Below are positions 128 through 38,220 of a stretch of DNA of 38,876 nt, piece by piece. Origin of the DNA: a virus. The position numbers and the translations under genes are program-made. Numbering within the stretch: position 1 is the stretch's first letter; every line of letters starts with the position of its first letter. Where the stretch lies: positions 1 to 38,876 of IMG/VR virus record IMGVR_UViG_3300033997_000186; one strand, written 5' to 3'. A model generated the notes under the pieces. It was not told where the DNA came from, made no database searches, and saw nothing but the letters and a program-made list of their open reading frames with translations.

Positions 128-167
128 TTTTGTCCGAGGAGTGGACCAGGCGCAGCGCAGCACTCAT
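1..167 (-). CDS. 5' part of an early ORF that spans the circular junction (continues from 38749 down to 38452; about 154 aa in total)
   Basis: An in-frame ATG at 165-167 (minus strand) overlaps the TGA of the upstream gene (ATGA coupling). The frame stays open through base 1 into the 38452..38826 ORF once the overlap is collapsed. Confidence 0.6.
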   Translation of the reverse strand, partial: MSAALRLVHSSDKSDPIPKSKEALRDHFYAVPGESKEDRAKRLSAERSKRYRLNQ

Positions 168-763
168 AGGGTTTCACCGTTCAACTTGGCCAGGAGCAAC
201 AGCGGCAGCGGGCGACCGGTGCCAGTCGACAAGGCCACCAGCTCGTTGAACATCGCGGCGATAGCCTCGGCGCCCTCTGTGAGCATTTCGTCGACCTGGT
301 CCGGGTCGTCGGTGTGGTCGTACTTGCCGTCGTGCGCCGGGGCGCTGGCGGCGAGGAAGTCACCAACCGCCTGCGTGACTTCACCCAAGCGAGCACGCGC
401 GGCAGGAACACCTACCAGGCCAACGAGCTCATGGATTCGGACGTCGAAACAGCCAGCCATGGCCAACAGCTCGGAGCGGGCGGCCTTCTGGTAGTCCTCG
501 GGCAGGCAGGAGAGCCAGGCCCATTTCCATTCCAGGGGGAACGGCTGGGTTTCGTGGAAAATGCGGGATACACGCTGCGCCCACGCCTTGCGGGTGCGCT
601 GGTAGGCCTCGATATCGGCTGGCTCCTCCATGGGGTCAATCAACCCCGCGGCCGCCAGTGCTGGCGCCAAGCGCTCGCTTGCGAAGCGCTCTAGTGACCA
701 GTCCGAATGGGCAAACCATCGGCTAGTCTGATCGACAACCACGTCGCGTTCTGTCCGAGTCAT
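164..763 (-). CDS. First gene of the leftward early operon, divergent from cI. Hypothetical; possibly a CII/YdaT-like regulator.
   Basis: ORF track 164..808. I prefer the ATG at 763, which is preceded by GGAAAGG. There is a weak by-eye resemblance to the YdaT / 186 CII pattern (W..R....ET.P.P.E....L.LPED). No Cro-sized ORF is present. Confidence 0.6.
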   Translation of the reverse strand: MTRTERDVVVDQTSRWFAHSDWSLERFASERLAPALAAAGLIDPMEEPADIEAYQRTRKAWAQRVSRIFHETQPFPLEWKWAWLSCLPEDYQKAARSELLAMAGCFDVRIHELVGLVGVPAARARLGEVTQAVGDFLAASAPAHDGKYDHTDDPDQVDEMLTEGAEAIAAMFNELVALSTGTGRPLPLLLLAKLNGETL

Positions 764-811
764 ATAGCACCTTTCCCTGAAAAATGGGTCGCATGTATCC
801 CTGCCCACATT

Positions 812-856: not shown

Positions 857-911
857 TGGTGCCGCTAGGCATTCCGAGGGGAAAATAATGCTTAGAAAAG
901 GAGAGGGAACC

Positions 912-1577
912 ATGCAACGCGATTTCACAATCGGCACCGCAATACGGACGCGGCGGCAAGCCCTTGGATGGTCGCTGCAGCGCCTGATCGACGCCTCGAA
1001 TTTGGAGATGTCGACCGGCCACCTAGCGACCCTAGAAACGAAGGACGTCGCCCCGAGCGTCTATGTCGCCGACGCACTGGCGAAAGGCCTGGGGACGACC
1101 GTCGACATACTGCTCAAAGAGGCGAGGAATCCGAATGGATTCACAGCGCCCAGCGAGCACGCCCAGCGCGTGCCTGTCATACCGTGGGCGCTGGCAGCCG
1201 AATGGGTGAAGAACCCCGACCCTACAAGGCTTCCAGCCGGTACAGCATGGGTGATGCCGCCCGAGTCGCCAGCGGGCCGGGTGTTCGCTATGACAGTGCG
1301 CGATGAAGGCATGCAGGCGCCGACCGGTGTCAGCTTCCCGCCTGGCTATACGATTTTCGTCGACCCTGCTCGAAAGCCGGTTGCCAATGATTTCCTGGTC
1401 GCTCACCTGAGCGACCAGGCCGCGCCCGTGTTCAAAAAACTGACACTCGACGGTTCGGCGTACTATTTGCGCGCACTAAACCCGCAGTTCCCCATGGTCC
1501 AGGTCGGTGATACATTCGAGAGCATTGGTGTCGTCGTCGGCCTGCGTGCTGGCTTCGACAAAGGGGGGATTCTATAA
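912..1577 (+). CDS. cI: Lambda-CI-type prophage repressor (XRE HTH plus S24/LexA-like C-terminal domain; nucleophile Ser replaced by Gly)
   Basis: The C-terminal half aligns by eye to lambda CI: VRDEGMQAPTG..FPPGYTIFVDP...FKKL...LNPQFPM versus VEGNSMTAPTG..FPDGMLILVDP...FKKL...LNPQYPM. There is an alternative ATG at 888. Confidence 0.9.
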   Translation: MQRDFTIGTAIRTRRQALGWSLQRLIDASNLEMSTGHLATLETKDVAPSVYVADALAKGLGTTVDILLKEARNPNGFTAPSEHAQRVPVIPWALAAEWVKNPDPTRLPAGTAWVMPPESPAGRVFAMTVRDEGMQAPTGVSFPPGYTIFVDPARKPVANDFLVAHLSDQAAPVFKKLTLDGSAYYLRALNPQFPMVQVGDTFESIGVVVGLRAGFDKGGIL

Positions 1578-1840: not shown

Positions 1841-1910
1841 TTTGTACTTTTTTACTTTTGTACTTTTGACCAAAGGGACAAAATGACAAACGTACAAAAG
1901 GACAAGGGCC
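1841..1910. repeat. Array A of 8-bp units (4 x TTTTGTAC-type then 5 x AAAAGGAC-type), overlapping the repA RBS and start codon
   Basis: tttgtac ttttttac ttttgtac ttttgacc aaagggac aaaatgac aaacgtac aaaaggac aagggcc, with a strict 8-bp register. Confidence 0.7.
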
Positions 1911-4900
1911 TGGCCGGCTTTTACGAGGAGCGGTTTAACTCCGACCCGTACAGCCTCATGGCTTACTTCGACGCTCAGATCAGCGCTGCAGCTGCTGACG
2001 TCTCTCTAAAGTGGTCTTCCGTCTCCAGCGCCGTGCGCCTCAACGGCAAGCCGCTGGCCAAGTATTCAAAAACCAAACCTGTTGCCCTCGAAACCCGTTA
2101 CCACGGGAAGGTGATGGTTTGGGGCGAGGTGAAGGAGACCGCCGCCAAGGACGACCTGGCCGAATTTGAATACCCGTTCCTCACCTTCTCGAACAACGTC
2201 ACCGGGTCGAGCACCTGGTCAGGCTTTACTGCGCTCCTCGAACTTTACAAGGATTCCCGCGGTGTCGTCTCTGACGATCGCCACCGCAAATGGCAGGCCG
2301 AGCAGGAAAAGCGGCGCGCCGAGCGTGAAGCCAAGCGCGAGGCCGAAGAAGCGGCCGAGCGCATTCGTGCCGAGCGCGTGGAAAAAGAGCTGGCGGCGTA
2401 CAAGCACGCTTGGCTGACCGGCGAGCGCGGCGAATTCGACTACGAAGGCACCAGCCGCGGCCGCGCCTACATCGGGCGCGGGTTTGTCGAGGTCCTGGGC
2501 GAGGAGGACGGCAGCTCTCCTTACTTGCAGGCGAAACAGATTTCTGACGTAGCGTCACGCTTCAAAATGTTGAAAATGCGTGACCGTCACGGTGAATTCA
2601 CCGCCGTTCCTCTCTACGATGCCTATCGAAATTTCCTCGGCCTGCAGCGCCTCTATGCTGACAAAAAGCTGCAGGGGACCGGCGTCAAGATGGCTGGCGC
2701 CCATTGCATCCTGGGCGACCTGGAAACCGCGCAGGTCCGTTTCGCGGTCGAAGGTTTCGCAACCGGCGCCAGCATCTACCTGGCAGAGCTCGAGGCCGGC
2801 CGTAACGTTGCGGTCGTCGTGACCTTCAACGTCGACAACCTGGTAAAGGTGCTGCATGTCTATGACAAGCTGTATCCGGCCTGGCGCTTCTGGAATGGCG
2901 CCGACAATGACCAGTGGAAGACCTCAGGCAATGCCGGCTTGCTGGCGGCCCTGGAAGTGCATAAAGAGCTGCAGCACCCTGGCATCGTTCCGCAGTTCAA
3001 GCTGACCGAGGAGCAGATCGCCGAGGCCAAGGCCACCGGCAAAGGTCCGACCGACTGGAACGACTTCCACGTCCTCTACGGCCTGAAAGCCACAGCCAAG
3101 GCTCTGCATGCCCGCGCCAGCGTGTTTCACGCCCAAAAAGACTGGTTCAGCTACTGCCTGCAGCGCGTCGAGCGCAGCGGGCGTTTCGCCGAGAAGGCCG
3201 CGAAAATGGCGATCAGCGGCGGCATGAACCTGGTCCCGATCAAGTACAGCACCGACGACGTCATTCGAGCGGTGCTCGAGGTGCTTCCCGCCGTGGCACC
3301 GGTCGAGCTGCGCACGAAGCTGCGTAGCCTGGCCTTGTGGATCGCCAACCAGCGCCGCAACCAGGCCCAGCAGCTGCGCAGCTTCTCGCCTGACGCCTTG
3401 AACAAGCCATATGTGCAGTACATGCCTATCGCTGCAGTGCCGCACCCGGAGCACGGCAGCCCGATGCTTCCTGGCCACCTGGCCGACCTGGTCGAGAGCC
3501 TCGAGGGGACCATCATCGTTCGCGCCCCAATGGGCAGCGGCAAAACCGAGGACCTGATCGCACCCGTACTGCAGGCGTCGACCAAAGGCGCTTATATCGC
3601 CCACCGAATTTCCCTGATGGATGATGCCACCGCCCGCTTGAACCTGGACCGCGAAGGCAACCAGGTCGACGCCAAAGTCGAGCATTACCAGCTGGTCAAC
3701 GCCTGGCAGATGCCCTACGTCTCGCACCTGACCTGCTGCGTCAACAGCCTGACCAACAAGAAATTTTACAACGCCGAGGACCGCAGCTGGTTTACCACTC
3801 TCGAAACCATCTGCATCGACGAAGCGAGCCAGGTTCTGCGCCATGTCACCTCAGGCCCGGTAGAGGGCCGCGTGCGCGTCATGGACGCACTGATCGAGGC
3901 CGTCAGCTCGGCCAAGCGCGTCGTACTGTGCGACGCCGACGCCAATGACTCGGTTATCGAGTTCTGTGCCTTGGCGCGTCCTGGTCAGATCATCACCGTT
4001 ATCGATATCCAGGGGCAGAACAAGCAAATTCGCGTCGACCACGGCGACGACGAAAGCGTCTGGCAGCTGGCGATCGACAAGATCAGCGAAGGCCGTCGGG
4101 TGATGGTTGCCAACGACTCGGCCGAGAGTGCAAAGAAAATGGCGGCCCTCATTGAGCAGATGGTCGAAGCCGGCGAAATGCCCGAGCGGCGAATGCTCCT
4201 GGTACACGCTGACAGCAAGGCCGACCCGGACGTCGAGGCGTTCCTCAGCGACCCGAAAAGCGAGGCCCTCAAGTATGACGTGCTGATCTACTCGCCCGCT
4301 ATTTCGTCGGGCGTCTCGATGAATCAGGCGCATTTCGAGTGCCATTTCGGCCTGTTCAGTGGCAACTCTGTCGGGCCATCCGACGCCCTGCAGATGCTTC
4401 GCCGCGATCGGACGGCAACCCACTACATCATCGGCATCGGCCACAGCTCGAGCCAGCGGGAAACGAACCCCGAGGTTATGTATCGGGGCATGATGGTGCT
4501 CGAGGAGCTGGCCTGCCAGATCGAGAACACCCCCGAGGAATTTCGCGTCGTGCGCAAAAAGACTGCATTCGACAAGGTCTATCTGTCGACTGTGACCTCT
4601 GAGAACCGCGCCCGCGCCAACTTTGCCAACAACCTGCTGCTGATGCTCGAGGCCGAGGGCTACCTAGTCCAGCGGCTCGACCTGCAGGGCGCCGAGGAGG
4701 AGCTCGCCGAGCTGTCCAGGATCAATCGCAAGTTCGCCGCCGAGCTGGTTTTCAGCAAGCGTATGGACTTGATCGAAAGCGTAACCACCCCCGACGAAGC
4801 CGAATTCTTGCGCCTCAACCGCCAGGAAGTGCGCAGCGAGGCCGAGAGTGCCCGCGTCGATCGCTACCACATTGAGCACCAGCTCTGCGTGGACGATATC

Positions 4901-5731
4901 AGCGCCACCGACGTCGCTTTCTACGATGATCGCGGTATCGACAAGGTGCGCGCCCTGGAGCTGCTGCAGTCCACTGCCGAGCAGGCCAAGGGTTACGACC
5001 TCGCCCAACGCAAGGCGCGGTCGGTCCTCACGCAGCATCGATTCAAGGCAGCTCCTCGCGCCATGCTCGAGGAGATTTTCGCCATCCTGACCCTGGACCG
5101 CATGACAGGCCTCGGGGAGTTCAACAGCGACCAGTGCCGCGAGGTCCGGGACCTGATCAAGTCCGACCAGGACACGCTGGATATCTACAATACCCTCAAG
5201 CTCGGCCGCTACATCCCGACGCTGGCCTCTAAGGTCTGCGCCACCACGCTTGTGAAATCGATCCTCGACCGCCTGGGCCTCACCACGAAAAAGCGTAAGA
5301 CGAACGGCCAGAACCTTTACCAGCTCAACATGGATAATTGGCACTTCGTTATGGGCTACTTACAGCGCCGCGCTGCCCGAAACGTCCACTCCCTGGCTGC
5401 CCATGAGCATGAAACCACGCACCAGCCCCTGCTGGCCCCTGAGGAGCCCGCAGATGCACCTGCGTATGTGTTCGCTGAAAGCAGGGACACTTTGCATTGT
5501 GAGGGTGTAAGCACAGATGAAAAGTATCCCTTGGAGGTAATCGAGCGGATTTGTGCTGTTGCTTCGCTTTGCGAGCTCCCCCCCGGTATCTCTGTTGCCC
5601 GCCTGGTGGGGGCGCTCAGCCCGGACCTGGTCAACCAGGTGACGGGGCCGAACGCGGACATGGCGGCCGCCAAGTGGACGTTGGATTATGCGGCGCGATT
5701 ACTTAGCCAGGAGACGCGGTATACTGTATGA
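1883..5731 (+). CDS. repA: RepA-like replication protein (Toprim primase domain plus helicase/NTPase), N15 RepA type
   Basis: 1282 aa. Toprim-like motifs EGFATGAS and ADND. Walker A (APMGSGKTE) and Walker B (ICIDEASQ). Position next to cI and telN matches other telomere phages. Confidence 0.85.
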   Translation: MTNVQKDKGLAGFYEERFNSDPYSLMAYFDAQISAAAADVSLKWSSVSSAVRLNGKPLAKYSKTKPVALETRYHGKVMVWGEVKETAAKDDLAEFEYPFLTFSNNVTGSSTWSGFTALLELYKDSRGVVSDDRHRKWQAEQEKRRAEREAKREAEEAAERIRAERVEKELAAYKHAWLTGERGEFDYEGTSRGRAYIGRGFVEVLGEEDGSSPYLQAKQISDVASRFKMLKMRDRHGEFTAVPLYDAYRNFLGLQRLYADKKLQGTGVKMAGAHCILGDLETAQVRFAVEGFATGASIYLAELEAGRNVAVVVTFNVDNLVKVLHVYDKLYPAWRFWNGADNDQWKTSGNAGLLAALEVHKELQHPGIVPQFKLTEEQIAEAKATGKGPTDWNDFHVLYGLKATAKALHARASVFHAQKDWFSYCLQRVERSGRFAEKAAKMAISGGMNLVPIKYSTDDVIRAVLEVLPAVAPVELRTKLRSLALWIANQRRNQAQQLRSFSPDALNKPYVQYMPIAAVPHPEHGSPMLPGHLADLVESLEGTIIVRAPMGSGKTEDLIAPVLQASTKGAYIAHRISLMDDATARLNLDREGNQVDAKVEHYQLVNAWQMPYVSHLTCCVNSLTNKKFYNAEDRSWFTTLETICIDEASQVLRHVTSGPVEGRVRVMDALIEAVSSAKRVVLCDADANDSVIEFCALARPGQIITVIDIQGQNKQIRVDHGDDESVWQLAIDKISEGRRVMVANDSAESAKKMAALIEQMVEAGEMPERRMLLVHADSKADPDVEAFLSDPKSEALKYDVLIYSPAISSGVSMNQAHFECHFGLFSGNSVGPSDALQMLRRDRTATHYIIGIGHSSSQRETNPEVMYRGMMVLEELACQIENTPEEFRVVRKKTAFDKVYLSTVTSENRARANFANNLLLMLEAEGYLVQRLDLQGAEEELAELSRINRKFAAELVFSKRMDLIESVTTPDEAEFLRLNRQEVRSEAESARVDRYHIEHQLCVDDISATDVAFYDDRGIDKVRALELLQSTAEQAKGYDLAQRKARSVLTQHRFKAAPRAMLEEIFAILTLDRMTGLGEFNSDQCREVRDLIKSDQDTLDIYNTLKLGRYIPTLASKVCATTLVKSILDRLGLTTKKRKTNGQNLYQLNMDNWHFVMGYLQRRAARNVHSLAAHEHETTHQPLLAPEEPADAPAYVFAESRDTLHCEGVSTDEKYPLEVIERICAVASLCELPPGISVARLVGALSPDLVNQVTGPNADMAAAKWTLDYAARLLSQETRYTV

Positions 5732-5774: not shown

Positions 5775-6059
5775 TTGCAGTGCCAGGAAAAAATGGACCG
5801 AGCGTCCGAGCAACTCAGTCGCGCCAAGTCGGCGCTTAGTTTGGCCATGAAGGCCGGTATGGAAGCAACACGAGGTGAACTGCTGGACGTTATCGCCGCG
5901 GTATTCGAGAGGGTGGAGGGAGCAGAGACGGCACTGCGAGCAGGAGAAAACAAGGATGCCCAGCCGGGGCAGTTGACCCCAGCTGGTTCGAGAACTGATG
6001 CGGTGCAAAATCAGTTGCGGGTTGTTCCTTTCGCCGCCAGCGCCAGCAGCGCGTCATAA
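5775..6059 (+). CDS. Small ORF between repA and telN; candidate SOS-controlled antirepressor / induction factor
   Basis: A strong SD (AAGGGGAGGG, 5759-5768) sits 6 nt before a TTG at 5775, with an in-frame ATG at 5793. Predicted to be helical and acidic. The 3' end overlaps the telN 3' end convergently. Confidence 0.5.
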   Translation: MQCQEKMDRASEQLSRAKSALSLAMKAGMEATRGELLDVIAAVFERVEGAETALRAGENKDAQPGQLTPAGSRTDAVQNQLRVVPFAASASSAS

Positions 6060-7645
6060 GCACCCGCTTTGCTGTCACCGTCCGCCCTGGCGATTTCCAC
6101 GCCATTGAGTCGGGCGACAGCGACCCAGCGGCCAGCGTCCTCTGTCACCGAGATACGCGGCTTAGCATTGACCACCTCTGCCGGAACAGCCGGCGCGACC
6201 GCTCGACTTGAGCGGTTCGGGGTCGCCAGGGCTTCACTGGCCATAGCCAGGTAGTCCTTGATCGCTTGCCGGTGGCTGCCTACGTTCACAGAGATTGCTT
6301 TCTGCGAGATAAGGACGTCAGGCGAGGCGGCCACAGCTTGTTTCACCCATGCGTGAATACGCTGCGAAGCAACACCGCCCGCGGCTTGTTCGTCGAGCGC
6401 CTCGAGCGCCTCGAGCCGGCTGCCGTACTTGCTTTCGGGCTCGGCCGGGACGTCGTTGGTGTAAGTGATCTTGAAAGCCTTGTAGCTCTCCTGGGTGTCC
6501 ATGTCTTCATGGCCCAGCATTTCCCGCCAGAACACCGTTTCGTTGACGCTTTTCCAGCGTGCATCCCGCGTGAAATGAGTCTCGAAAACGATCCTCGCCC
6601 ATATCGCCCGGCTGTCCTTGAACACGCGATCGGGGCTGCCCAGCACCCGCTTGGCCACGGTGTTTAGGGTCTTGGCCACACGCCGGTTTACCTCGATGTT
6701 GTCCAGGTGCTGCAGCTCCAGGACTTCGGGCAGCACCCGCAGGCGCTCGAGCGCCTCGAGCACCAGGTCAGCCTTGAGCAGGGTGTAGATGCGGTAGCTC
6801 GAGCCGTAATCGACCCCGTTCCGGCGCTTGGCCTGTCCGCTGAATTCGAGCTCATACTCGCCGGCCTTCTCGAAGCGGCCGAGCTTGAGCACCTCGATTT
6901 CACGGCGGCCCGTGACCATCGCCAGCCCCATCGCCAGCGACGAGAAGCGCTGCACCGGCTCGCCGTTGGCGCCGATTTCAGCGTCGGTCAGCAGGCGCTG
7001 CGCGGTGTCGACATACTGGTAATAGTTGACCTCGACAGTATTGGTCGCGCGCTCCTCAAGGGTGGCCGTGGCCATGGTGGCCAGCTCGGCCTTTGTGACC
7101 GCGGGCAGCACCAGATGCCGCATGATTTCGTGGTCCAGCTTCATCGCCTGGATAGCCTCGAAAGCGTCGTGGTCGCGGTCCTGGCGGATCTGCGCCAGCA
7201 GCTCGCGGTGCGCGAGCCGCAGCTCGGTGATGTTGTCCAGGTCGACCAGGGCGAGCAGCTGCTCGGCGTACCGCGGGTGATGCTTAGCCAGGCGCCTGGC
7301 CGACTCCTCAATGCCATGGTGGCGCCAGTTCTGCGCGGTCACGGCCTTGCGGACGAGGGTCAGGTAGCGGCGATAGCTCGACGGGCGCAGCTTGTCGTCG
7401 TCCTTGCGGCGCTTGTCCTCATACAGGCGCTTTTTCAGGCTCTCAGCGATGCGCGTGATGCGCTTCGTCTTCTCGCTGCGCGACATGTGCGGGTCGCTGT
7501 CCACCAGCCTGACGTCCTGCAGCATTTTGTCGATCATGGGCTGCAGCTCGACCTTTTGCCGAGTAGCCCCGCCGTAGTTGCCAAAGCTGGCGCGCTCCTG
7601 GTCCTGTCCCATCGCCTCATCACCCTTCGTCAGTTCGTCGCTCAT
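6011..7645 (-). CDS. telN: Protelomerase (telomere resolvase)
   Basis: Matches remembered N15 TelN blocks: TGRREIEV / SGRRMIEI, FSGQAKRR / FSGQAKKR, IYTL, VFKDSRAIWARIVFE / VYKDSRAIYARIAYE, RWK.V.E.VF..EMLGHEDMDTQESYKAFK / RWKNVDEDVFFMEILGHDDENTQLHYKQFK. I prefer the ATG at 7645 over the TTG at 7711. Confidence 0.95.
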   Translation of the reverse strand: MSDELTKGDEAMGQDQERASFGNYGGATRQKVELQPMIDKMLQDVRLVDSDPHMSRSEKTKRITRIAESLKKRLYEDKRRKDDDKLRPSSYRRYLTLVRKAVTAQNWRHHGIEESARRLAKHHPRYAEQLLALVDLDNITELRLAHRELLAQIRQDRDHDAFEAIQAMKLDHEIMRHLVLPAVTKAELATMATATLEERATNTVEVNYYQYVDTAQRLLTDAEIGANGEPVQRFSSLAMGLAMVTGRREIEVLKLGRFEKAGEYELEFSGQAKRRNGVDYGSSYRIYTLLKADLVLEALERLRVLPEVLELQHLDNIEVNRRVAKTLNTVAKRVLGSPDRVFKDSRAIWARIVFETHFTRDARWKSVNETVFWREMLGHEDMDTQESYKAFKITYTNDVPAEPESKYGSRLEALEALDEQAAGGVASQRIHAWVKQAVAASPDVLISQKAISVNVGSHRQAIKDYLAMASEALATPNRSSRAVAPAVPAEVVNAKPRISVTEDAGRWVAVARLNGVEIARADGDSKAGAYDALLALAAKGTTRN

Positions 7646-7647
7646 AC

Positions 7648-7982
7648 ATACACCCTTTGCCCTAGTGAAAGATAGCAGGCTATTGCCATACACCCATAGC
7701 CCGCGTGTCAATAAGCATCATTGTACACCCATTGCCAGTGCATGTATACACCCATTACCCAATCTCACCTAATATACACCCATAGCCCAATATACATGGC
7801 TTAGTGCGCTCTATATTGGGCAAAGGGTGTATACACCGATCCCCCATTCTATACGTATAGAATGGGGGATCGGTGTATACACCCTTTGCCCTATGACTAT
7901 TTAGGGGTATGGGTGTATACAGGTACGGGCTATGGGTGCATGGGGATAGAGGGCTATGGGTGTACATATACACCCATAGCCC
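7648..7982. repeat. Array of about 11 copies of a 16-mer family, TAYACACCC(A/T)T(A/T)GCCC, arranged symmetrically around the tel palindrome
   Basis: Forward copies start near 7648, 7687, 7722, 7744, 7772 and 7877. Inverted copies start near 7818, 7905, 7928 and 7951, with one more forward copy at 7968. A 32-bp near-palindrome lies at 7951-7982. Confidence 0.8.
7818..7891. other. Telomere resolution site (telRL-like): 74-bp perfect palindrome centred between 7854 and 7855
   Basis: GGGCAAAGGGTGTATACACCGATCCCCCATTCTATACGTATAGAATGGGGGATCGGTGTATACACCCTTTGCCC, with every pair checked by hand. The core CCATTCTATACGTATAGAATGG resembles N15 telO, CCATTATACGCGCGTATAATGG. Confidence 0.9.
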
Positions 7983-8232
7983 TATGTCATAATGCCATTT
8001 GCCAAGGGTGATAGCTTGCGGGGGACTAATAGCGGAATGAGCCTGGTTGATGGCCAACAGGCCATAAAGGAGCGTCAAGCGCCTATACACCCCAAGGACC
8101 AGGCAGGGTCCTTTCTACAGGGCTATAGCGCCTAACCCGCATGCAGCAAGGGCTGCAGCGCTAAGGGGTAAGGACAGCGCTCGGCGCGGGGGCAGAGTGA
8201 CGGATAATGTGGCGCTTCGCGCCGCTGTTTGT

Positions 8233-8278
8233 TTGTACCTTTGACCTTTAGGCCTATTGTACAAAGGTACATTTGTAC
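8233..8278. promoter_or_regulatory. Array B of 7-8-bp TTTGTACC-type units upstream of parA (candidate par operator/centromere)
   Basis: ttgtacc tttgacc tttaggcc tattgtac aaaggtac atttgtac, lying 38 bp upstream of the parA ATG. Confidence 0.65.
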
Positions 8279-8315: not shown

Positions 8316-8963
8316 ATGGCAGCAAGAGTCTGGACAATACAGAACCAAAAGGGCGGCACGACAAAGACCACGACCGCAACCAATATCGCGTGCTGCCTGG
8401 CTGACAAGCACGGCAAAAGCGTGCTCCTGGTCGACCTGGACGGCCGCCAAGGCTCGGCAACCGACTGGGCAACCTCCCGCGCTGACAGCGCTACGCTGAT
8501 CCCCTGCGTCATCATGCGCGAAACCCTAAAGCGCGACCTGCCGCGTATCTCGAGCGGTTACGACTACGTGATCATCGACGGGATACCGCAAATCAGCACC
8601 CTTACCTCTGACGCCGTTAAGGCCTCTGACCTGGTCGTCATCCCCGTGCAGCCAAGCCAGTACGACATATGGGCGACCGCCGACATGGTGCAGCTCGTAA
8701 AGGACCGCCAGGAGATTACCGGGGGCACGCCAAAGGCCGTGCTGATGATCGCCAGGGCCATCGCCGGCACCCTCCTCGAGCGCGACGCGCAGCAGGCGCT
8801 GCTCAACTACGAAATGCCGATCACCGCCACCCAAACGCACCAGCGCGTCGCCTACGGCAAGGGCATCGCCCAGGGCAATAGCGTTATGGACCTACCACCG
8901 TCCGACGACGCCCGCCTCGAGATTGAAGCGCTGACCGCCGAGCTGCTGGAGCTTGATAAATGA
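8316..8963 (+). CDS. parA: ParA partition ATPase (small type Ib, no N-terminal HTH)
   Basis: Deviant Walker A QNQKGGTTKTT, then VLLVDLD and YVIIDG. GAGG lies 8 nt upstream of the ATG at 8316. Confidence 0.9.
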   Translation: MAARVWTIQNQKGGTTKTTTATNIACCLADKHGKSVLLVDLDGRQGSATDWATSRADSATLIPCVIMRETLKRDLPRISSGYDYVIIDGIPQISTLTSDAVKASDLVVIPVQPSQYDIWATADMVQLVKDRQEITGGTPKAVLMIARAIAGTLLERDAQQALLNYEMPITATQTHQRVAYGKGIAQGNSVMDLPPSDDARLEIEALTAELLELDK

Positions 8964-9271
8964 CCACCTCGAAAATCACCACCGCCCGCCCAAGCCGCGC
9001 CGTCGCGTCTGGCATTGAGCCGCATGTCGAGAAGGCCCGCCGCGCCGTTGTGAGCGACGCTGTCGAGGAGAAGCAGCTAAAAGCGATCGTGCCGACGAAG
9101 TACCACAAGGGCACCACCGACATTAAAAACATGTCGCTCGACAACGTGCCTGTTAAGTACCTGATCATCGAGGCGCTCGACGACCTTTTCAGGAAGTACG
9201 AGCAAGGGGAGGGGCATTACAGCATCGAGGACCAGGAGGAGCTGGCGCGTCGATTGAAGTCATTGAAGTGA
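8960..9271 (+). CDS. Small centromere-binding protein, ParG/omega-like ribbon-helix-helix (predicted)
   Basis: 103 aa, ATGA-coupled to parA. Disordered basic N-terminus, then a beta-helix-helix pattern (KQLKAIVPTKYHKG...VKYLIIEALDDLFRKY). Confidence 0.65.
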   Translation: MTTSKITTARPSRAVASGIEPHVEKARRAVVSDAVEEKQLKAIVPTKYHKGTTDIKNMSLDNVPVKYLIIEALDDLFRKYEQGEGHYSIEDQEELARRLKSLK

Positions 9272-9493: not shown

Positions 9494-9642
9494 AGCGCAC
9501 CGACGACCCGACCGGCCTGCAGTTCCTGTTTACCGGCATCGTGGCCATTGCTCTCGGCCTGCAGCTGGCGTGGGTATTCCTGCACCGCCTCTACACCCAG
9601 CGTTTCGACCACCAGGAAACCAACAAGGACGACCAACCATGA
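9490..9642 (+). CDS. Small single-pass membrane peptide (50 aa, GTG start)
   Basis: In frame with track ORF 9436..9642. GGGGAGG lies 8 nt upstream. Hydrophobic core LQFLFTGIVAIALGLQLAWVFL. ATGA-coupled to the next gene. Confidence 0.45.
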   Translation: MKRTDDPTGLQFLFTGIVAIALGLQLAWVFLHRLYTQRFDHQETNKDDQP

Positions 9643-9983
9643 AATTCCCTGCAGCTGCACTCCTGGTCGCGCTGGCGATCGCCGCCACCGCGCCGGCACA
9701 CGCCCGCGACTGCGACATAGACCGCGACGGGCGCAAAGACGCTACGTGCGGCGGACCTGACCGCGACCTCGACAACGACGGGCGCACCGACGCCAGGTTC
9801 GGCGGCCCCGACCGTGATATCGACAACGACGGCCGCACCGACGCCAAGTTCGGCGGGCCTGACCGGGACCGCGACAACGACGGGCGAACCGACGCGACGT
9901 TCGGCGGCCCCGATCGCGACCTCGACAACGACGGGCGCACCGACCGCCGATTCGGCGGCCCAGACGACCGCTGGGGGCGCTGA
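9639..9983 (+). CDS. Secreted protein with 17-aa DxDxDG calcium-binding-type (thrombospondin type 3-like) tandem repeats
   Basis: Signal peptide MKFPAAALLVALAIAATAPAHA, then 4.5 copies of GGPDRDxDNDGRTDAxF. Confidence 0.75.
   Translation: MKFPAAALLVALAIAATAPAHARDCDIDRDGRKDATCGGPDRDLDNDGRTDARFGGPDRDIDNDGRTDAKFGGPDRDRDNDGRTDATFGGPDRDLDNDGRTDRRFGGPDDRWGR
9750..9953. repeat. Four tandem 51-bp repeats (coding repeats of the 9639..9983 gene)
   Basis: GGCGG(A/C/G)CC recurs at 9750, 9801, 9852, 9903 and 9954, a period of exactly 51 bp. Confidence 0.9.
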
Positions 9984-9984
9984 C

Positions 9985-10197
9985 ATGGCCATTACCATCA
10001 AGGTGCGCATGAGCTGCAGCGCCTACCAGGCGCGAGCCATGCGCCTTGGCGTGACTGCCAGCAGCGCCGAGAGTGCCAAGGCCGCAGCCATGGCCGTATG
10101 CCGCAAGCTGGGCGCCGATCCCGAGCTGCTCGAGCAGATTCCCGGCGACCCAATGACGACCACCTACACCCATCCGCACCAGGAGCAACCGGCATGA
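9985..10197 (+). CDS. Hypothetical protein (70 aa)
   Basis: ATG 2 nt after the upstream stop. ATGA-coupled to the following gene. High GC3. Confidence 0.55.
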   Translation: MAITIKVRMSCSAYQARAMRLGVTASSAESAKAAAMAVCRKLGADPELLEQIPGDPMTTTYTHPHQEQPA

Positions 10198-10628
10198 CCA
10201 CCACCGACCCCCGCGACGCTCTCGCGCCCTGCCCCTGGTGCGGCGAGCAAGCAACGCGCGTAATGCTGACCCACCCCGAGCCAGAGTGCGGCGAAATCCT
10301 GCGCCAGGAGGATTACGGCGACGGCGTCGACGGTGACGCGCAAGCCTTCTGCCACATGTGCGGCGCACGGCCGGCAGCCGTCGGCGTGACGCTCTACACC
10401 GCCGAGGACTACGACGAAGCGATCGCGCTGGCTGTCAGCTCCTGGAACGACCGCAAGGGCGCCGAGGTGGCCGACGCGGCGATCAGGGCGGACGCCAGGC
10501 GCTATCGCCGCCTCCTGCACGAAGGGCTGCGCTTCATGGCTGGCGGCAAGCTGCACCAGACCAAGGCCGAAACCGACGCAGCGATCGACGCCCTAGAGCC
10601 CGCCCCTGCATCAGCGTCGCGCATGTAG
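10194..10628 (+). CDS. Lar-family (restriction alleviation-like) zinc-ribbon protein with a C-terminal extension
   Basis: PCPWCG ... CHMCGA ... EAIALAVSSWNDR matches the Lar-family pattern (CPFCG...CG...A..AWN.R). AGGAG lies upstream of the ATG at 10194. Confidence 0.6.
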   Translation: MTTTDPRDALAPCPWCGEQATRVMLTHPEPECGEILRQEDYGDGVDGDAQAFCHMCGARPAAVGVTLYTAEDYDEAIALAVSSWNDRKGAEVADAAIRADARRYRRLLHEGLRFMAGGKLHQTKAETDAAIDALEPAPASASRM

Positions 10629-10639
10629 CGCGCCCCACA

Positions 10640-10665
10640 AGCCCGCCCACTCGGCGGGCTTTTTG
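10640..10665 (+). terminator. Rho-independent terminator ending the 9338-10628 operon
   Basis: An 8-bp stem (AGCCCGCC / GGCGGGCT) with loop CACTC, followed by TTTTTG. Confidence 0.75.
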
Positions 10666-10704
10666 TTACCCTGCGCGCCATCACGCAATGGAGATACGCG
10701 CAGC

Positions 10705-11058
10705 ATGAAAGCAAAGCCCCTTCTGATCGGCCTCGGCGTCGCCGTCCTGGTCATCCTCGGATTCAACGACCTGGCCAACAAGGACGCCAACGCGCTCGAG
10801 CGCGTGAGCGACCGCGTCGGCCTGCAGGTCAATTGCAGCGTGGACAAGTTCGACGGCCAGCGCTGGGGCGTGTGCCACTACCAGAACGGCGCGCCGGCAA
10901 GCGCCTGGCTCGACCGGGACGGCACCTGGATTGCCGGCAACGGCGGCGCGATCAAGGTCGTCGACCGCCTGGCCAACGTCAGCGATCTGCAGGGGCTACC
11001 GCCTGTAATGCGCGACTACGTGAAGCCGCCCGCCATGCCCGCCGCACTGTTCGAGTAG
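10705..11058 (+). CDS. Secreted or membrane-anchored hypothetical protein (117 aa)
   Basis: N-terminal MKAKPLLIGLGVAVLVILGF. It has its own SD (GGAGA) and lies between two terminators. Confidence 0.6.
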   Translation: MKAKPLLIGLGVAVLVILGFNDLANKDANALERVSDRVGLQVNCSVDKFDGQRWGVCHYQNGAPASAWLDRDGTWIAGNGGAIKVVDRLANVSDLQGLPPVMRDYVKPPAMPAALFE

Positions 11059-11073
11059 CGAGCACCAGGAACG

Positions 11074-11112
11074 AAAAAAGCCCCCACCGCCGCGAGGCAG
11101 TGGGGGCTTTTT
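11074..11112. terminator. Bidirectional terminator between the convergent plus and minus gene blocks
   Basis: AAAAAAGCCCCCAC...GTGGGGGCTTTTT: an 8-bp GC stem with an A-tract and a T-tract on either side. Confidence 0.8.
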
Positions 11113-12122
11113 CATTCCAGCGGCACAGATGCCTCAATCGTGCAGCGGTAGCTCTGTCCTCGGCTGCCACGCTCTGTAACCTTGTCGATCGACCACTGCT
11201 GGCGCATGAAGCTGGGCCAGCTGTCATCGAGCACGACCAGGCCCTCGGCGCCGTAGCCAGGATTACCAGGGCAATCAATCTGCACCTTGTACGCGCTGCG
11301 CTTGATCTTGCGCAGTTCACCCTCGCCGGCATCCTTTGCCTCGGCTTCGTTCTGGTAGCGCTGGCGCACCTTTTTGAAAGGCTTCTCGCCAGTTTCGACC
11401 ACCTTTTCCTTGCCGGTCGCCGCGTCCCACCAGGTCGTGCGCGTGCCCTTGAACTTGGCGCGGCTGTCGTCGTCCAGGGACGCCTGGATAAACGCTGAAT
11501 CCCCCGGCCTGTTGTCGTTCGTGAGCGAGATAGTCATCACCGGCAGGGTTTTGCCCGACAGCGACTTGAGCTGGCCGCGGCGAGCCATGACATACAGCTC
11601 GTTTACCGGCTTCGTGACGGCGTCGTACTGGCGCGCGATCCTGGTCAAGAACCCCATGTCAGTCTCGTTCGACTGGTCGACGTGCTCGATCTTGATCGCG
11701 TCCAGCTCGGGCGCGATCCGCGGCGAGAAGCCGTGACGGCCAGCCAGCTCGCGGAACACCGCGCCCAAGGTCGTCGGGCCATAGCTGGCCGAGCGACGCG
11801 CCTTGAATTCCGTCTCGTCGGCGACCTTGAACGGCGCGGCCGTGGCCACAATCTGCAGCTGCGACGGGAACAGTTGCGGTGTTACGCGCGTAACGACGAA
11901 CTGGCCAGCGTCGACCAGGCCGGATTCCTTGTAGCCGCGCCGAAAGCCGATTTTCTCGTCGACGCTTGGCAGTCCCTCGATGCCCTCAGTGCTCACCGTC
12001 AACCTGAGGGTGTCCGACTGGACCCCCGCCGCGTCGACGTACTCCCAGTCGATTAACCGGGAGTTGATCAGCCCAGCATTTGCGCCCGTCACCTCGACGG
12101 CCGGCGTGTACCCCAACGACAT
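11112..12122 (-). CDS. P2 gpD-like tail protein (late control D family)
   Basis: 336 aa. Last gene of the tail block, following gpU/gpX-like genes. The sequence pattern is typical of gpD. Confidence 0.75.
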   Translation of the reverse strand: MSLGYTPAVEVTGANAGLINSRLIDWEYVDAAGVQSDTLRLTVSTEGIEGLPSVDEKIGFRRGYKESGLVDAGQFVVTRVTPQLFPSQLQIVATAAPFKVADETEFKARRSASYGPTTLGAVFRELAGRHGFSPRIAPELDAIKIEHVDQSNETDMGFLTRIARQYDAVTKPVNELYVMARRGQLKSLSGKTLPVMTISLTNDNRPGDSAFIQASLDDDSRAKFKGTRTTWWDAATGKEKVVETGEKPFKKVRQRYQNEAEAKDAGEGELRKIKRSAYKVQIDCPGNPGYGAEGLVVLDDSWPSFMRQQWSIDKVTERGSRGQSYRCTIEASVPLE

Positions 12123-33109: not shown

Positions 33110-33183
33110 GAAAGGACCAAATGGGAAAAGTGGCAAAAGGACAAAGGTACAAAGGTCCTTTGTTACCTTTGTCCTTTTGGCAC
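33110..33183. repeat. Array C of 8-bp units (6 x AAAGGAC/AAAGGTAC-type then 3 x TTTGTCC-type), forming a ~50-bp imperfect palindrome 5 nt upstream of terS
   Basis: gaaaggac caaatggg aaaagtgg caaaaggac aaaggtac aaaggtcc tttgttacc tttgtcc ttttggcac. Confidence 0.7.
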
Positions 33184-35422: not shown

Positions 35423-35471
35423 CTTTTTGCCTTTTGTACCCTTTGCCTTTTTGCCCTTTGTACCTTTGTAC
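35423..35471. repeat. Array D of six direct 7-9-bp TTTGTACC / TTTGCC units upstream of the candidate late promoter
   Basis: ctttttgcc ttttgtacc ctttgcc tttttgcc ctttgtacc tttgtac. Confidence 0.7.
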
Positions 35472-35827
35472 TATCCAGCAGCGCAGCGGCGGCCATATCG
35501 TTTAGCCCACAATTCCGCCTGGACCTGCAGATAGGCGCGCACCTCATTTGCCAGCGCGACCGGAATCCGGTCAGGGAAACTCAGCTCAACCCGCACCAGG
35601 TCGCAGCATTCTACTTCTGGCTCAGGCGTAGGCGCGGTCATTGTCGCGAGCGCAGGCACAACCTCGACCAGCTCGGCGTCAGGCGTCTTGATGATGTTCA
35701 CATACCCCGACGGCTCGCGGGTTATGAATTCGTCGCGGTCGTGGCCTAGGAACTTGACCACTTCGCCAATCTTGTCGGCGTACCAGTACGAGCTGTTACT
35801 GCAGCCCGTGATCAGCAGCATTTTCAT
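35471..35827 (-). CDS. Hypothetical protein (118 aa), last gene of the early operon
   Basis: ATG at 35827, 2 nt after the upstream stop. Confidence 0.55.
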   Translation of the reverse strand: MKMLLITGCSNSSYWYADKIGEVVKFLGHDRDEFITREPSGYVNIIKTPDAELVEVVPALATMTAPTPEPEVECCDLVRVELSFPDRIPVALANEVRAYLQVQAELWAKRYGRRCAAG

Positions 35828-35829
35828 TG

Positions 35830-36147
35830 TCACCTCACAGCCCGGGCCCAGCCGGCTCGAGCACCTTCGATTGTTGCGTAACCATGATCGACAAAGTCGC
35901 AGCCGGCGCACCGGGAGCCCCATTGCCCACCACTGGAAAAGAACCGGGCGACGCCGTTGGCCTTGCAGGCATGCGCGGGCATTTCAGCGTCGTTGACCAG
36001 GCTCCAGGAGGACAGAGCCCTGGCCTCTACCGGGTGCGCCTCGCCGCGGTTGTTGCACACCGGACAAATCCACATGACTCGACCGGAGTCGACCTGGTGG
36101 CGACGCTCAGGAGCGACGCCGCAGTGCAGGCAGGGCAGGGCCGACAT
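35830..36147 (-). CDS. Cys-rich protein with one complete and one partial Lar-like zinc-ribbon unit
   Basis: CLHCG...CPVCN...ALSSW, then C....RCAGC...ARAGW. Confidence 0.5.
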   Translation of the reverse strand: MSALPCLHCGVAPERRHQVDSGRVMWICPVCNNRGEAHPVEARALSSWSLVNDAEMPAHACKANGVARFFSSGGQWGSRCAGCDFVDHGYATIEGARAGWARAVR

Positions 36148-36564: not shown

Positions 36565-36717
36565 CTATTTCTTGCCAACCATCAGCACCGCCAGCAGCAA
36601 AGCGACGATCACCAGGTCAGCACACATCGAGAGGAGTCGACTTGCAGAATCGACCAGGACAACGGCGCCGGCCAGCCCGAAGGCCAGCCAGTTCCGAGCA
36701 GAGGAGAGCCAGGTCAA
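36565..36717 (-). CDS. Possible 50-aa membrane peptide (TTG start overlapping the TerB-like stop)
   Basis: Hand translation gives LTWLSSARNWLAFGLAGAVVLVDSASRLLSMCADLVIVALLLAVLMVGKK. Not in the ORF track. Confidence 0.3.
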   Translation of the reverse strand: MTWLSSARNWLAFGLAGAVVLVDSASRLLSMCADLVIVALLLAVLMVGKK

Positions 36718-38008: not shown

Positions 38009-38220
38009 GCGCAGCACCTCATGGCCTGCAGGCTGCTGATGCAGCTGGTGCACCTGGTCGCCCACGAACAGGCAGCCAGGCGCGGCGGGTCGATCCGCTC
38101 GCCACAGATGCGGCACGACAGCACGCTCGCGACTTCGCGCAGCGACTGATCGGTCTGGAACTCCTTTTCTATGGCGTCGTCGGCACGGAGCTCGAGCCCG
38201 CCAAGTACATCAGTGGACAC
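38005..38220 (-). CDS. TraR/DksA-family C4 zinc-finger protein
   Basis: CRICGERIDPPRLAA....TRCTSC. GTG start. Confidence 0.6.
   Translation of the reverse strand: MSTDVLGGLELRADDAIEKEFQTDQSLREVASVLSCRICGERIDPPRLAACSWATRCTSCISSLQAMRCCA

Follow-up and report, generated by a model that had tools for sequence, protein, structure and literature searches.

A protelomerase and its telomere site in a temperate Pseudomonas myovirus predicted to lysogenise as a hairpin-ended linear plasmid

Relationship to the described telomere phages

The biology of telomere phages is established through the characterised phages N15, phiKO2, PY54, phiHAP-1 and VP882, and the gene order ParA, telomere site, tel and RepA is common to phiHAP-1, VP882, N15 and phiKO2. 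Restriction mapping showed the phiHAP-1-like HMP1 to be a linear plasmid that carries an inverted repeat between parA and telN (PMC9170930), and relatives of phiHAP-1 and VP882 in Pseudomonas were already reported in 2025 (PMC12042878). The DNA analysed here is the IMG/VR record IMGVR_UViG_3300033997_000186, the whole 38,876-nucleotide stretch of which is referred to as the window. The window is a circular assembly with a 127-bp terminal overlap, which gives a true length of 38,749 bp, and its GC content is 63.3%, in agreement with the roughly 63% given in a sequence-only reading of the same DNA. Every ORF of at least 300 aa was assigned a function. These assignments bear out the P2-like tail and lambda-like head described in that reading, as the tail is P2-type and the terminase and portal are lambda-type. 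An integrase, which had not been seen previously either, was found neither among the assigned ORFs of at least 300 aa nor in domain searches of the window. The telomere-phage gene set is complete, comprising a protelomerase gene (tel), its target site (telRL), a RepA-type replication protein and a partition system, with integrase absent. The window is almost certainly the complete genome of a temperate myovirus that infects Pseudomonas and belongs to the hapunavirus-like (phiHAP-1/VP882) lineage of telomere phages, and its prophage is predicted to be a linear plasmid with hairpin ends. The host is Pseudomonas, and both near-identical copies and the phage type are already present in public databases. 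This is a clean identification of a telomere phage in Pseudomonas, to which clinical P. aeruginosa also belongs.

The Halomonas phage phiHAP-1 (Hapunavirus HAP1) is colinear with the window from terS to CII, and 33 of its 46 proteins are matched at 29–62% amino acid identity. Both genomes have the order ParA, palindrome, tel, small ORF and RepA, and neither has an integrase. The phiHAP-1 Tel is 56.4% identical to that of the window and has the same domain set, including a truncated muzzle, and its telomere site likewise has TACGTA at the centre. In contrast to the window, the phiHAP-1 palindrome is 92 bp rather than 74 bp, core position 7 from the dyad is A rather than T, and there are about 4 copies of its own arm box in place of a 13-copy 16-bp array. 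The accessory genes also differ, and the window belongs to a Pseudomonas host (GC 63%). A megablast search with 20 kb of the window gave no nucleotide similarity to phiHAP-1 beyond a 36-bp exact match at 11076-11111, which is a shared bidirectional terminator. In ICTV practice, members of a genus have about 70% nucleotide similarity across the genome. The window shares the gene order and orthologous core genes of Hapunavirus but falls below genus-level nucleotide similarity, and the phage is hapunavirus-like but probably in a separate genus.

The Vibrio phage VP882 also shares the gene order, has a Tel that is 48.2% identical to that of the window, and carries the same core as phiHAP-1. Unlike the window, VP882 has a perfect palindrome of only 24 bp with asymmetric outer arms, and it possesses a VqmA-phi/Qtip quorum-sensing module. 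In the window, the Qtip position holds no more than a small, doubtful ORF (5775-6059) that is unrelated: it showed no homology to phiHAP-1 ORF35 or VP882 Qtip and no match in Pfam, NCBIfam or PHROG.

N15 TelN, phiKO2 TelK and PY54 Tel belong to the same enzyme family as the window Tel and have the same catalytic residues, at 27–34% amino acid identity. Their sites have the same core pattern, a location upstream of tel and flanking arm-box repeats. They differ from the window in that the enzymes possess a complete muzzle domain of 118 aa and C-terminal linkers that are long and acidic, the central hexamer is CGCGCG rather than TACGTA, and the tail is of the siphovirus rather than the myovirus type. 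The phage had been placed nearer to a PhiHAP-1/VP882/VHML type than to N15. This placement stands for phiHAP-1 and VP882, with Tel identities of 56% and 48% versus 27% for N15, but not for VHML, as the protelomerases of VHML type (vB_VpaM_MAR, VP585) stand no nearer to that of the window than N15 does (24% identity over 56% of the protein).

The protelomerase, its target site and the plasmid genes

The features of the tel locus are listed below.

6011..7645, minus strand: tel, protelomerase (telomere resolvase) gene, 544 aa from ATG, assigned from Pfam, the TelK structure in the PDB, identity to phiHAP-1/VP882 and catalytic alignment
-35 at 7748-7743 and -10 at 7725-7720, minus strand: candidate tel promoter from a promoter scan
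7818..7891, no strand: telRL, the protelomerase target, a perfect 74-bp palindrome with its dyad at 7854/7855, positioned as in phiHAP-1, N15 and phiKO2
7843..7866, no strand: conserved 24-bp core CCCATTCTATACGTATAGAATGGG (dyad between the two halves), the telO equivalent, with 11/12 bases per half-site as in phiHAP-1/VP882
7852-7857, no strand: central hexamer TACGTA, putative 6-bp stagger by comparison with TelK/TelN
7826..7837 (mirror 7872-7883), no strand: box 2 GGTGTATACACC of the arm on the tel side, a sub-palindrome of alternating Py/Pu located 18-29 nt from the dyad
7818-7824 (mirror 7885-7891), no strand: box 3 GGGCAAA, outer palindrome arm

The mechanical ORF for tel extends on to a TTG at 7711, while the 544-aa form is that called on five other metagenome contigs and annotated in NZ_AP022474.1. 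A PDB search with Tel returned the TelK structure 2v6e (E=7.5e-54), and Tel matches the Pfam families PF16684 (3.5e-30, 105.3 bits, cutoff 27) and PF20818, the stirrup (5.6e-8, 33.2 bits, cutoff 27). The protelomerase identity proposed earlier from the letters alone is borne out by this homology. The protein comprises a TelK_N-like domain at the N-terminus, a truncated muzzle and the catalytic domain (aa 202-390), with the stirrup at aa 409-474 and, at the C-terminus, a small conserved domain (aa ~495-540). The residues R247, K273, R346, H379 and Y388 are invariant in a six-protein alignment of Tel, TelK, TelN and the PY54, phiHAP-1 and VP882 enzymes. The tyrosine motif recognised previously as TQ.SYKAFK reads TQESYKAFK in Tel, and its Y388 is the nucleophile, aligned with TelK Y425. 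Judged by these matches and the alignment, the ORF is a protelomerase whose active site, the family set R-K-(Y/F)-R-H and the tyrosine nucleophile, is complete and intact. The presence of F342, a Tyr in TelK and TelN, was considered as a possible active-site defect and rejected, as Phe also stands at this position in the phiHAP-1 and VP882 enzymes and in PY54 Tel, whose activity is known from experiment.

The palindrome at 7818-7891 is perfect over its 74 bp, as had been claimed, and the first arm mismatch occurs at arm position 38. From the start codon of tel it is 172 nt to the near edge of the palindrome (about 170 bp in the sequence-only reading) and 209 nt to the dyad. Among the zero-spacer palindromes of the window, the runner-up has a half of 10 nt; the maximum in 30 shuffles was 11, and the analytic chance expectation for a 37-nt half is 2e-18. 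The location of telRL between ParA and tel is the same as that of the annotated repeat_region of phiHAP-1 and of telRL in N15 and phiKO2. The 24-bp core differs from that of phiHAP-1/VP882 by a single base change per arm, and it is identical in more than 10 relatives: in 12 of 21 other aligned sites as well as in further truncated relatives. A 22-bp core pattern, NCATNNTANNCGNNTANNATGN, fits the window, N15, phiKO2, PY54, phiHAP-1 and VP882, consistent with the earlier remark that the core echoes N15 telO. Over the whole half-site, 33 of 43 positions are identical to phiHAP-1 in a gap-free alignment (core 11/12). Contrary to the earlier impression, the site is therefore not very distinct, given its likeness to phiHAP-1/VP882 and its identical core in the relatives. 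By comparison with TelK and TelN, the top strand would be cut after 7851 and the bottom strand at the symmetrical position, which would give the cuts about 3 bp either side of the dyad predicted in the sequence-only reading.

The half-site module is kept in 22 relatives, in which the spacer between the core and box 2 varies with both arms changing together. Across these relatives, 30 of 46 symmetric positions are altered on both sides (0/500 shuffles), and the paired arm changes are complementary in 86.7% of cases versus 23–47% when the arms are slid. On the evidence of this comparison, the symmetry of the tel site is under selection, as the arms co-vary. The tel site of the lineage is defined to the nucleotide, including the modular half-site and the TACGTA centre, and Tel together with its site offers a further orthogonal pair for making closed linear DNA.

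The genes for replication, partition and lysogeny are listed below.

164-808, minus strand: CII-like gene, divergent from the repressor, homologous to the phiHAP-1 CII-like protein
888..1577, plus strand: CI/LexA-type prophage repressor (HTH and S24 peptidase; Pfam Peptidase_S24 6.5e-12, HTH)
1883..5731, plus strand: RepA, multifunctional replication protein (CyRepA1 1.1e-104, NCBIfam; 47% identity to the phiHAP-1 replication protein)
8232..8278, no strand: AAAGG-rich palindrome just upstream of parA, candidate partition or operator site
8316..8963, plus strand: ParA partition ATPase (NF041546 ParA_partition 2.3e-64; 48% identity to phiHAP-1 ParA)
8960..9271, plus strand: small ParA partner of 103 aa, putatively centromere-binding and possibly RHH, overlapping the parA stop codon

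ParA matches the NCBIfam equivalog NF041546 with 216.7 bits (cutoff 180); its ORF opens at TTG 8229, and the likely start is ATG 8316 (MAARVWTIQNQKGG...). RepA contains a primase at about aa 208-417 and a helicase/origin-binding part at about aa 542-1138, and matches phrog_4913 'replication' (6e-286) in addition to primase and helicase PHROGs. The repressor is homologous to that of phiHAP-1. The ParA and RepA genes named in the sequence-only reading are thus retained. The ParG-like label given there to the ORF at 8960-9271 could not be confirmed, as its basis is position, homology to phiHAP-1 ORF32 (37.5% identity) and a sub-threshold RHH match; the ORF also matches phrog_15913 (3e-21, function unknown), and a centromere-binding role is suggested for it. 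Sites related to the AAAGG-rich palindrome are located at 33128-33180 (upstream of terS) and 35459-35472, and these AAAGG-rich sites are candidate partition/operator sites, distinct from the motif that flanks tel.

Fold-back records and the form of the prophage

Deposited 'circular plasmid' records from Pseudomonas provide the strongest evidence. Two of these records, P. monteilii pSTW0522-72-1 (NZ_AP022474.1) and P. aeruginosa pPHPALO418 (CP075795.1), represent essentially the same phage as the window, with Tel identities of 98.9% and 99.3% and aligned parts that are 93–95% identical in nucleotide sequence (47–62% of a 25-kb query covered). The core is identical wherever the palindrome is present. 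Both records were deposited as circular plasmids, the first at double length and the second without the palindrome, and no description of either as a telomere phage was found in accessible papers.

The pSTW0522-72-1 record is 79,236 bp, or 2 x 39,618 bp, and contains two divergent tel copies and two parA copies, with a tel region that is 96.3% identical to the window in nucleotide sequence. The sequence folds back without a mismatch at the R-R' junction (2377/2377 nt) and with 99.96% identity over 2742 nt at the L-L' junction, both junctions being centred on CCCATTCTATACGTATAGAATGGG; its L and R arms differ at two positions, whereas the arms of the window are perfect. Plasmid records from P. 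corrugata and P. aeruginosa NY5520 (Tel ~72% identical) are also double length with a perfect fold-back at the same dyad, and the same perfect fold-back is observed in an IMG/VR contig (L013, the same as L015). In total, four independent Pseudomonas records or contigs turn back exactly at the dyad, and the turnaround predicted earlier at 7854/7855 is thereby matched in near-identical and related records that fold back on the same core. Reading a linear plasmid with hairpin ends through those ends would give just such double-length fold-back records. Head-to-head dimers in circular form, which arise during replication by the same mechanism, are another possible origin. Several 'circular' Pseudomonas plasmids of 75–79 kb are most probably double-length readings of ~38–40 kb hairpin-ended linear phage-plasmids. 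Such misread double-length records, and a record without its telomere palindrome, matter for plasmid databases and for finding replicons of this kind.

The following life cycle is proposed. The phage genome would circularise after infection, and a protelomerase dimer would bind telRL (7818-7891), make staggered cuts around 7854/7855 and reseal each strand onto its complement. The prophage produced would be a linear plasmid, covalently closed by a hairpin at each end, in which tel would lie 209 bp from the telL tip and parA about 460 bp from the telR tip. The plasmid would be replicated by RepA, with the replicated L-L' and R-R' junctions resolved by Tel, while segregation would depend on ParA and its small partner and lysogeny would be kept by the CI/LexA-type repressor. 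The linear plasmid prophage put forward in the sequence-only reading is supported by Tel, the site, ParA/RepA, the absent integrase and the fold-back records of near-identical replicons.

In the window itself telRL is uncut and the assembly is circular. This fits DNA from virions, replicating DNA or a mixture of forms, but hairpins are not visible in the assembly itself. Assembly as a circle through an intact palindrome would also be seen if the element were kept as a circular plasmid or phage, with the palindrome acting as an operator, origin or cruciform and tel being a relic or only occasionally used. The deposition of CP075795.1 as circular is compatible with such a state, as is L056 (ERZ27245855), a metagenome contig of the same phage from which the core is missing through a deletion of 86 bp, although the flanks are intact and the tel gene is identical. 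However, CP075795.1, the closest deposited record, is simply without the palindrome at its ends: about 86 bp holding it (+46/-40 from the dyad) are missing, and this gap resembles a break in the assembly more than a sign of a circular molecule. Furthermore, Tel has a fully conserved active site, the 22 relatives show an invariant core and co-varying arms, and the fold-back at the dyad in four Pseudomonas records or contigs is impossible for a circular monomer, all of which make a circular element very improbable. Integration into the chromosome, with the window as the excised or induced form, is a generic expectation for a temperate phage with nothing specific in its favour. It is given hardly any credence, as no integrase, tRNA or att-like feature was found in the window and the relatives occur as self-contained 36–40 kb contigs or plasmid records in isolate genomes.

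Contigs from five metagenomes end near the dyad, where the palindrome exceeds many assembler k-mers. The ends of L057, L058 and L060 are at +18, -7 and +27 nt relative to the dyad, and those of L011, L024, L033, L036, L051 and L054 are within 6–35 nt of it. These ends were rejected as proof of natural hairpins, as a perfect palindrome longer than the k-mer breaks contigs under any topology.

The repeat array flanking the telomere site

A 16-bp motif, GGGCWAWGGGTGTATA, occurs in 13 copies in the window, all inside 7647-7982, where 0.09 would be expected. The flanking copies are located as follows.

7647..7788, minus strand: five copies of the motif on the tel side, identified by motif count versus expectation
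7904..7982, three copies on the plus strand and the fourth (7967-7982) on the minus strand: four copies on the ParA side, identified by motif search

The motif has the same sequence as the outer palindrome arm (boxes 2 and 3), with the distal arm copies being family members. The tel-side copies overlap the candidate tel promoter, and the copy at 7647-7662 overlaps the tel ribosome-binding site. The minus-strand copy at 7967-7982 and the copy at 7951-7966 together make up a palindrome of 32 bp. The offsets of the flanking copies are conserved in two related contigs (L008 and L009). The large array is restricted to a single sub-clade, phiHAP-1 does not have it, and no description of it was found in the accessible literature on such phages.

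In N15, Tel stays on the hairpins and blocks SbcCD. The 13 flanking repeats may be extra Tel-occupancy sites that form a tos-like platform, which could cap the telomeres and autoregulate tel. It is tentatively suggested that the tel site of the sub-clade has grown into a subtelomeric platform of ~340 bp, in which the Tel-bound array would serve both as telomere cap and as feedback control of tel dosage. If true, this end structure would be more elaborate, shelterin-like, than known for any phage telomere. With its copies over the tel promoter, the sub-clade-specific array makes telomere capping and the autoregulation of tel accessible to experiment.

It is also possible, though doubtful, that the repeats at 7647-7982 are a partition centromere or operator for the ParA partner (8960-9271) or for another phage regulator, and not protelomerase sites. 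Type Ib partition systems often have iterated sites between such genes, and the repeats occupy this usual place between tel and parA. The confinement of the large array to one sub-clade is consistent with such a role, as is the processing of the P840 site by PY54 Tel, for which flanking repeats are dispensable (PMC10612081). In contrast, the sequence that the repeats share with boxes 2 and 3 argues for protelomerase sites, and a separate candidate for partition is provided by the AAAGG-rich palindrome directly upstream of parA, which recurs at two dispersed sites like the N15 partition sites. In N15, too, telRL is flanked by repeats of the arm box.

The protelomerase and its telomere site

The ORF at 6011-7645, here called tel, encodes a protein that its sequence identifies as a protelomerase, as the sequence-only reading had claimed, and a palindrome, telRL, lies upstream of it as the cognate site.

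Features of the telomere region
5775-6059 (+): 94-aa ORF, convergent with tel, overlapping its 3' end by 49 nt
6011-7645 (-): tel, 544 aa counted from the ATG
7748-7743 and 7725-7720: -35 and -10 of a candidate sigma-70 promoter
7818-7891: telRL, perfect 74-bp palindrome GGGCAAAGGGTGTATACACCGATCCCCCATTCTATAC/GTATAGAATGGGGGATCGGTGTATACACCCTTTGCCC, dyad (slash) between 7854 and 7855
8232-8278 (upstream of parA), 33128-33180 (upstream of terS), 35459-35472: AAAGG-rich palindromes (TGTACCTTTG.../...CAAAGGTACA)

The Pfam profiles ResT-TelK_cat (3.5e-30) and TelK_stirrup (5.6e-8) both exceed their gathering scores, and residues 26-474 match the solved TelK structure 2v6e (7.5e-54). The active site is intact, as the columns of R247, K273, R346, H379 and Y388 are invariant in an alignment with the phiHAP-1, VP882, TelK, TelN and PY54 enzymes. 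By the 2v6e match and the TelK literature, these residues are equivalent to R275, K300, R386, H416 and Y425 in TelK. TelK and TelN have a Tyr at position 342, whereas the window, phiHAP-1, VP882 and active PY54 enzymes have a Phe. Similar to the phiHAP-1 and VP882 enzymes, the protein comprises an N-terminal domain, a truncated muzzle, a catalytic domain and a stirrup; the 118-aa muzzle profile matches those two enzymes over its first half only, and the window protein falls below detection. A C-terminal domain of ~45 aa (aa ~495-540, window 6011-~6160; KPR...dG.W...G...A....AM.AAW) is kept in all six aligned proteins, with very different linkers. The N15 C-terminal domains are reported to be dispensable for resolution and telomere protection (2025 paper).

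The closest characterised enzymes are those of phiHAP-1 (56.4% identity, 1e-135) and VP882 (48.2%), compared with 26.9% for N15. The proposed placement nearer PhiHAP-1 and VP882 than N15 therefore stands, but its extension to VHML does not, as VHML-like MAR/VP585 enzymes share 24.1% over about half of the protein. The identical 544-aa protein occurs on contigs of five other metagenomes.

The tel start codon is 172 nt from the near edge of telRL and 209 nt from its dyad, in agreement with the perfect palindrome noted earlier ~170 bp upstream. Arm position 38 is the first to mismatch. This palindrome is far beyond chance: the next-longest zero-spacer palindrome of the window has a 10-nt half, the maximum in 30 shuffles is 11, and the analytic expectation is 2e-18. 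Known sites were taken as palindromes from the public records of phiHAP-1, VP882, N15, phiKO2 and PY54.

Core half-sites (slash, dyad)
Window: CCCATTCTATAC/GTATAGAATGGG
phiHAP-1 and VP882: CCCATACTATAC/GTATAGTATGGG; 11/12 per half against the window
N15 and phiKO2: CCCATTATACGC/GCGTATAATGG(G/A); third G in phiKO2 only
PY54: AGCATACTACGC/GCGTAGTATGCT

A 22-bp pattern for tel cores, NCATNNTANNCGNNTANNATGN, was tested and fits 6/6 sites (window, phiHAP-1, VP882, N15, phiKO2, PY54). The central hexamer is TACGTA in the hapunavirus-like group, as opposed to CGCGCG. The whole window half-site aligns with that of phiHAP-1 without gaps (33/43), from an outer TATATTGGGC common to both. Given this alignment and the core agreement, the two sites are homologous; the window site is not very distinct, contrary to the earlier claim.

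Symmetry and repeats around the site

Relatives carrying tel comprise 40 IMG/VR loci and 9 loci of species-representative genomes, with Pseudomonas frederiksbergensis, Pseudomonas sp. HS-2, P. cuatrocienegasensis, Stutzerimonas kunmingensis and Halomonas spp. as hosts. In all loci keeping the upstream region, tel is preceded at 160-325 nt by a palindrome that shares the core. In each half-site the invariant core is followed by ~6 nt of variable spacer, then by a sub-palindrome of alternating Py/Pu (GGTGTATACACC, GGTGCATGCACC or TATGTATGCAC) and lastly by TAGGGCC. When the palindromes of 22 sites were compared at 46 pairs of symmetric positions, 30/46 pairs had changes on both sides, and 86.7% of cells were complementary versus 23-47% with a slid register; 0/500 shuffles reached any observed symmetry measure. 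The sequence therefore drifts but stays symmetric, the behaviour expected of a site that a dimer recognises and that is turned into hairpins.

At the P. monteilii NZ_AP022474.1 junctions (L061, L062+L063), two positions distinguish the L arm from the R arm (GGGCAAGGGG...GATCCCCC vs GGGCAAAGGG...GATTCCCC), so that the telRL of this element would be an imperfect palindrome, in contrast to the window arms, which match perfectly for 37 nt. Over evolutionary time the arms are kept symmetric, but this is not enforced each generation. A contig of the same phage (L056, ENA ERZ27245855 k141_775454; Tel identical, flanks 100% identical) is without 86 bp (window ~7825-7921) between 11-bp direct repeats GGGTGTATACA at 7825-7835 and 7911-7921, which removes the tel core and one arm. 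This contig represents either a naturally occurring tel-less variant, such as palindrome instability would be expected to produce, or a misassembly.

The motif GGGCWAWGGGTGTATA has 13 copies (<=3 mismatches) in the window, all inside 7647-7982, versus 0.09 expected: five on the tel side (-), two per arm and four on the ParA side, the last two of which form a 32-bp palindrome. The tel-side copies overlap the candidate promoter, and the copy at 7647-7662 overlaps the tel ribosome-binding site. The array (10-14 copies, offsets conserved) is common only to the closest relatives, L008 and L009 (Tel identity 81-82%), and is reduced to two arm copies in distant relatives. N15 follows the same principle in reduced form, with two arm boxes and two degenerate flanking copies; a review describes additional repeats flanking the 56-bp core in the N15 system (PMC12624138). 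The AAAGG-rich palindromes recall the dispersed N15 partition sites and are candidate dispersed partition/operator sites of a small ParA partner. Because the array repeats the sequence of the arms, and the palindrome upstream of parA that recurs at the two other sites is a different, AAAGG-rich one, we infer that extra Tel occupancy is a more likely role for the array than that of a centromere.

Double-length plasmid records and hairpin ends

PLSDB was searched for plasmids with Tel, and Pseudomonas records were found. P. monteilii pSTW0522-72-1 (NZ_AP022474.1) encodes a Tel 98.9% identical to that of the window, with a tel region 96.3% identical in nucleotides. Deposited as "circular", it measures 79,236 bp (2 x 39,618 bp), with two divergent tel copies, 37415-39049 (-) and 39469-41103 (+), and two parA copies face to face across the record origin. 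Its R-R' junction (right ends joined to their mirror copy; dyad 78876/78877) is a perfect palindrome over the 2377/2377 nt compared, and its L-L' junction (dyad 39259/39260) is 99.96% palindromic over 2742 nt, with one homopolymer indel. Both centre on the window's core half-sites. P. corrugata pPcorr-B21-055 (75,476 bp), P. aeruginosa pNY5520-NR (77,056 bp) and IMG/VR contig UViG_2713897325_000002 (L013 = L015) fold back perfectly at the same core. Four "circular" Pseudomonas plasmids of 75-79 kb contain two tel copies (NZ_AP022474.1, NZ_CP102178.1, NZ_CP096940.1, NZ_CP115281.1); three of the four were examined, and all three are inverted duplications of ~38-40 kb phage-plasmids joined at the tel dyad.

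When both ends of a duplex are covalently sealed, its two strands form a single self-complementary circle twice as long as the duplex, so such records are exactly what a hairpin-ended plasmid should yield on long-read assembly. A circular head-to-head dimer would be the only other explanation, and this is itself the replication intermediate of a hairpin-ended plasmid. The predicted turnaround at the dyad is found in near-identical replicons. Several public "circular" plasmid records can now be recognised as double-length readings of hairpin-ended linear replicons, and the tel site is defined to the nucleotide together with its repeat array. P. aeruginosa pPHPALO418 (CP075795.1, 38,390 bp, labelled circular; Tel 99.3%) ends at +46/-40 from the dyad, so ~86 bp with the palindrome are simply missing. 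Many Klebsiella and E. coli tel-bearing records likewise have two tel places, which suggests that the same artefact is widespread.

The fold-back evidence concerns these other replicons; the window's own molecule is a closed circle with uncut telRL, which fits virion DNA, replicating DNA or mixed forms. A 127-bp exact direct repeat at its termini (1-127 and 38750-38876), typical of circular de Bruijn assembly at k=127, shows that the window was assembled as a circle whose true length is 38,749 bp, and the break is arbitrary because it lies inside a CII-like gene. Assembly through the 74-bp palindrome at k=127 implies uncut telRL molecules in the sample.

By analogy with the TelK structure, the cuts would be 6 bp apart around the dyad. 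Following the N15, TelK and PY54 literature (PMC10612081, PMC3540006, PMC12624138), the genome would circularise after injection, staggered cuts would leave self-complementary overhangs that fold back and are then sealed, replicated L-L' and R-R' junctions would be resolved, and bound Tel may protect the hairpins. The prophage would begin with a hairpin at 7854 and extend leftwards over tel, repA and the immunity region; beyond the assembly junction would follow the lysis, head and tail genes and then parA, with a second hairpin at 7855 as the other end.

Genome content and relationships

The window (63.3% GC) has 33 colinear tblastn matches from 46 annotated phiHAP-1 proteins (29-62% identity, inverted orientation). 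The matches begin with terS/terL, the portal and the capsid, continue over the P2-type tail and take in ParA, Tel, RepA, the repressor, CII, Q and Lar. Pfam matches to a lambda-type gpA terminase and portal, an HK97-type capsid and P2-type tube, gpD, J and V proteins bear out the proposed lambda-like head and P2-like tail, and the repressor is CI/LexA-like. Plasmid-maintenance genes are present and integrase is absent, as proposed: RepA matches NCBIfam CyRepA1 (1.1e-104) with primase and helicase/origin-binding segments, ParA is above its NCBIfam equivalog cutoff, and no integrase was found in the window, in which all ORFs >=300 aa are assigned. No tRNAs were found in the window.

Previous work counted 213 Pseudomonas linear-plasmid-phage sequences and defined a HAP-1-like cluster (mBio 2025, PMC12802170). 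A banana-virome study reported a phage similar to pSTW0522-72-1, with no mention of protelomerase, telomere or linear plasmid (PMC10288200). In view of these counts and the deposited relatives, the window is a correctly identified further telomere phage of a kind already known. It probably represents a genus separate from Hapunavirus, because nucleotide similarity to the latter is wanting.

The 94-aa ORF at the tel 3' end occupies the place held by Qtip in VP882 and ORF35 in phiHAP-1; it is called by gene callers on all metagenome contigs, has a low GC3 (0.61), and no homologue or family was detectable. Accessory and regulatory ORFs (36714-37151 (-), 10098-10628 (+), 35830-36147 (-), 37163-38116 (-)) encode a TerB-domain protein, two restriction-alleviation proteins similar to Lar and a Q-like antiterminator of 317 aa, with the Q domain confined to residues 170-308. 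In the accessory region beside the partition genes, a 137-aa ORF without phiHAP-1 counterpart (9570-9983 (+)) begins with a signal-like segment and contains an Asp-rich repeat (GGPDRDxDNDGRTDA) five times in tandem, with a weak match to thrombospondin type-3 (calcium-binding). The only megablast-level match to phiHAP-1 is a 100% identical 36-bp segment, AAAAGCCCCCACCGCCGCGAGGCAGTGGGGGCTTTT (window 11076-11111, NC_010342 23278-23313), between the convergent gene blocks of ORF 10663-11058 (+) and gpD 11112-12122 (-). It looks like a bidirectional intrinsic terminator, as it forms a GC-rich hairpin with A and T runs on either side.
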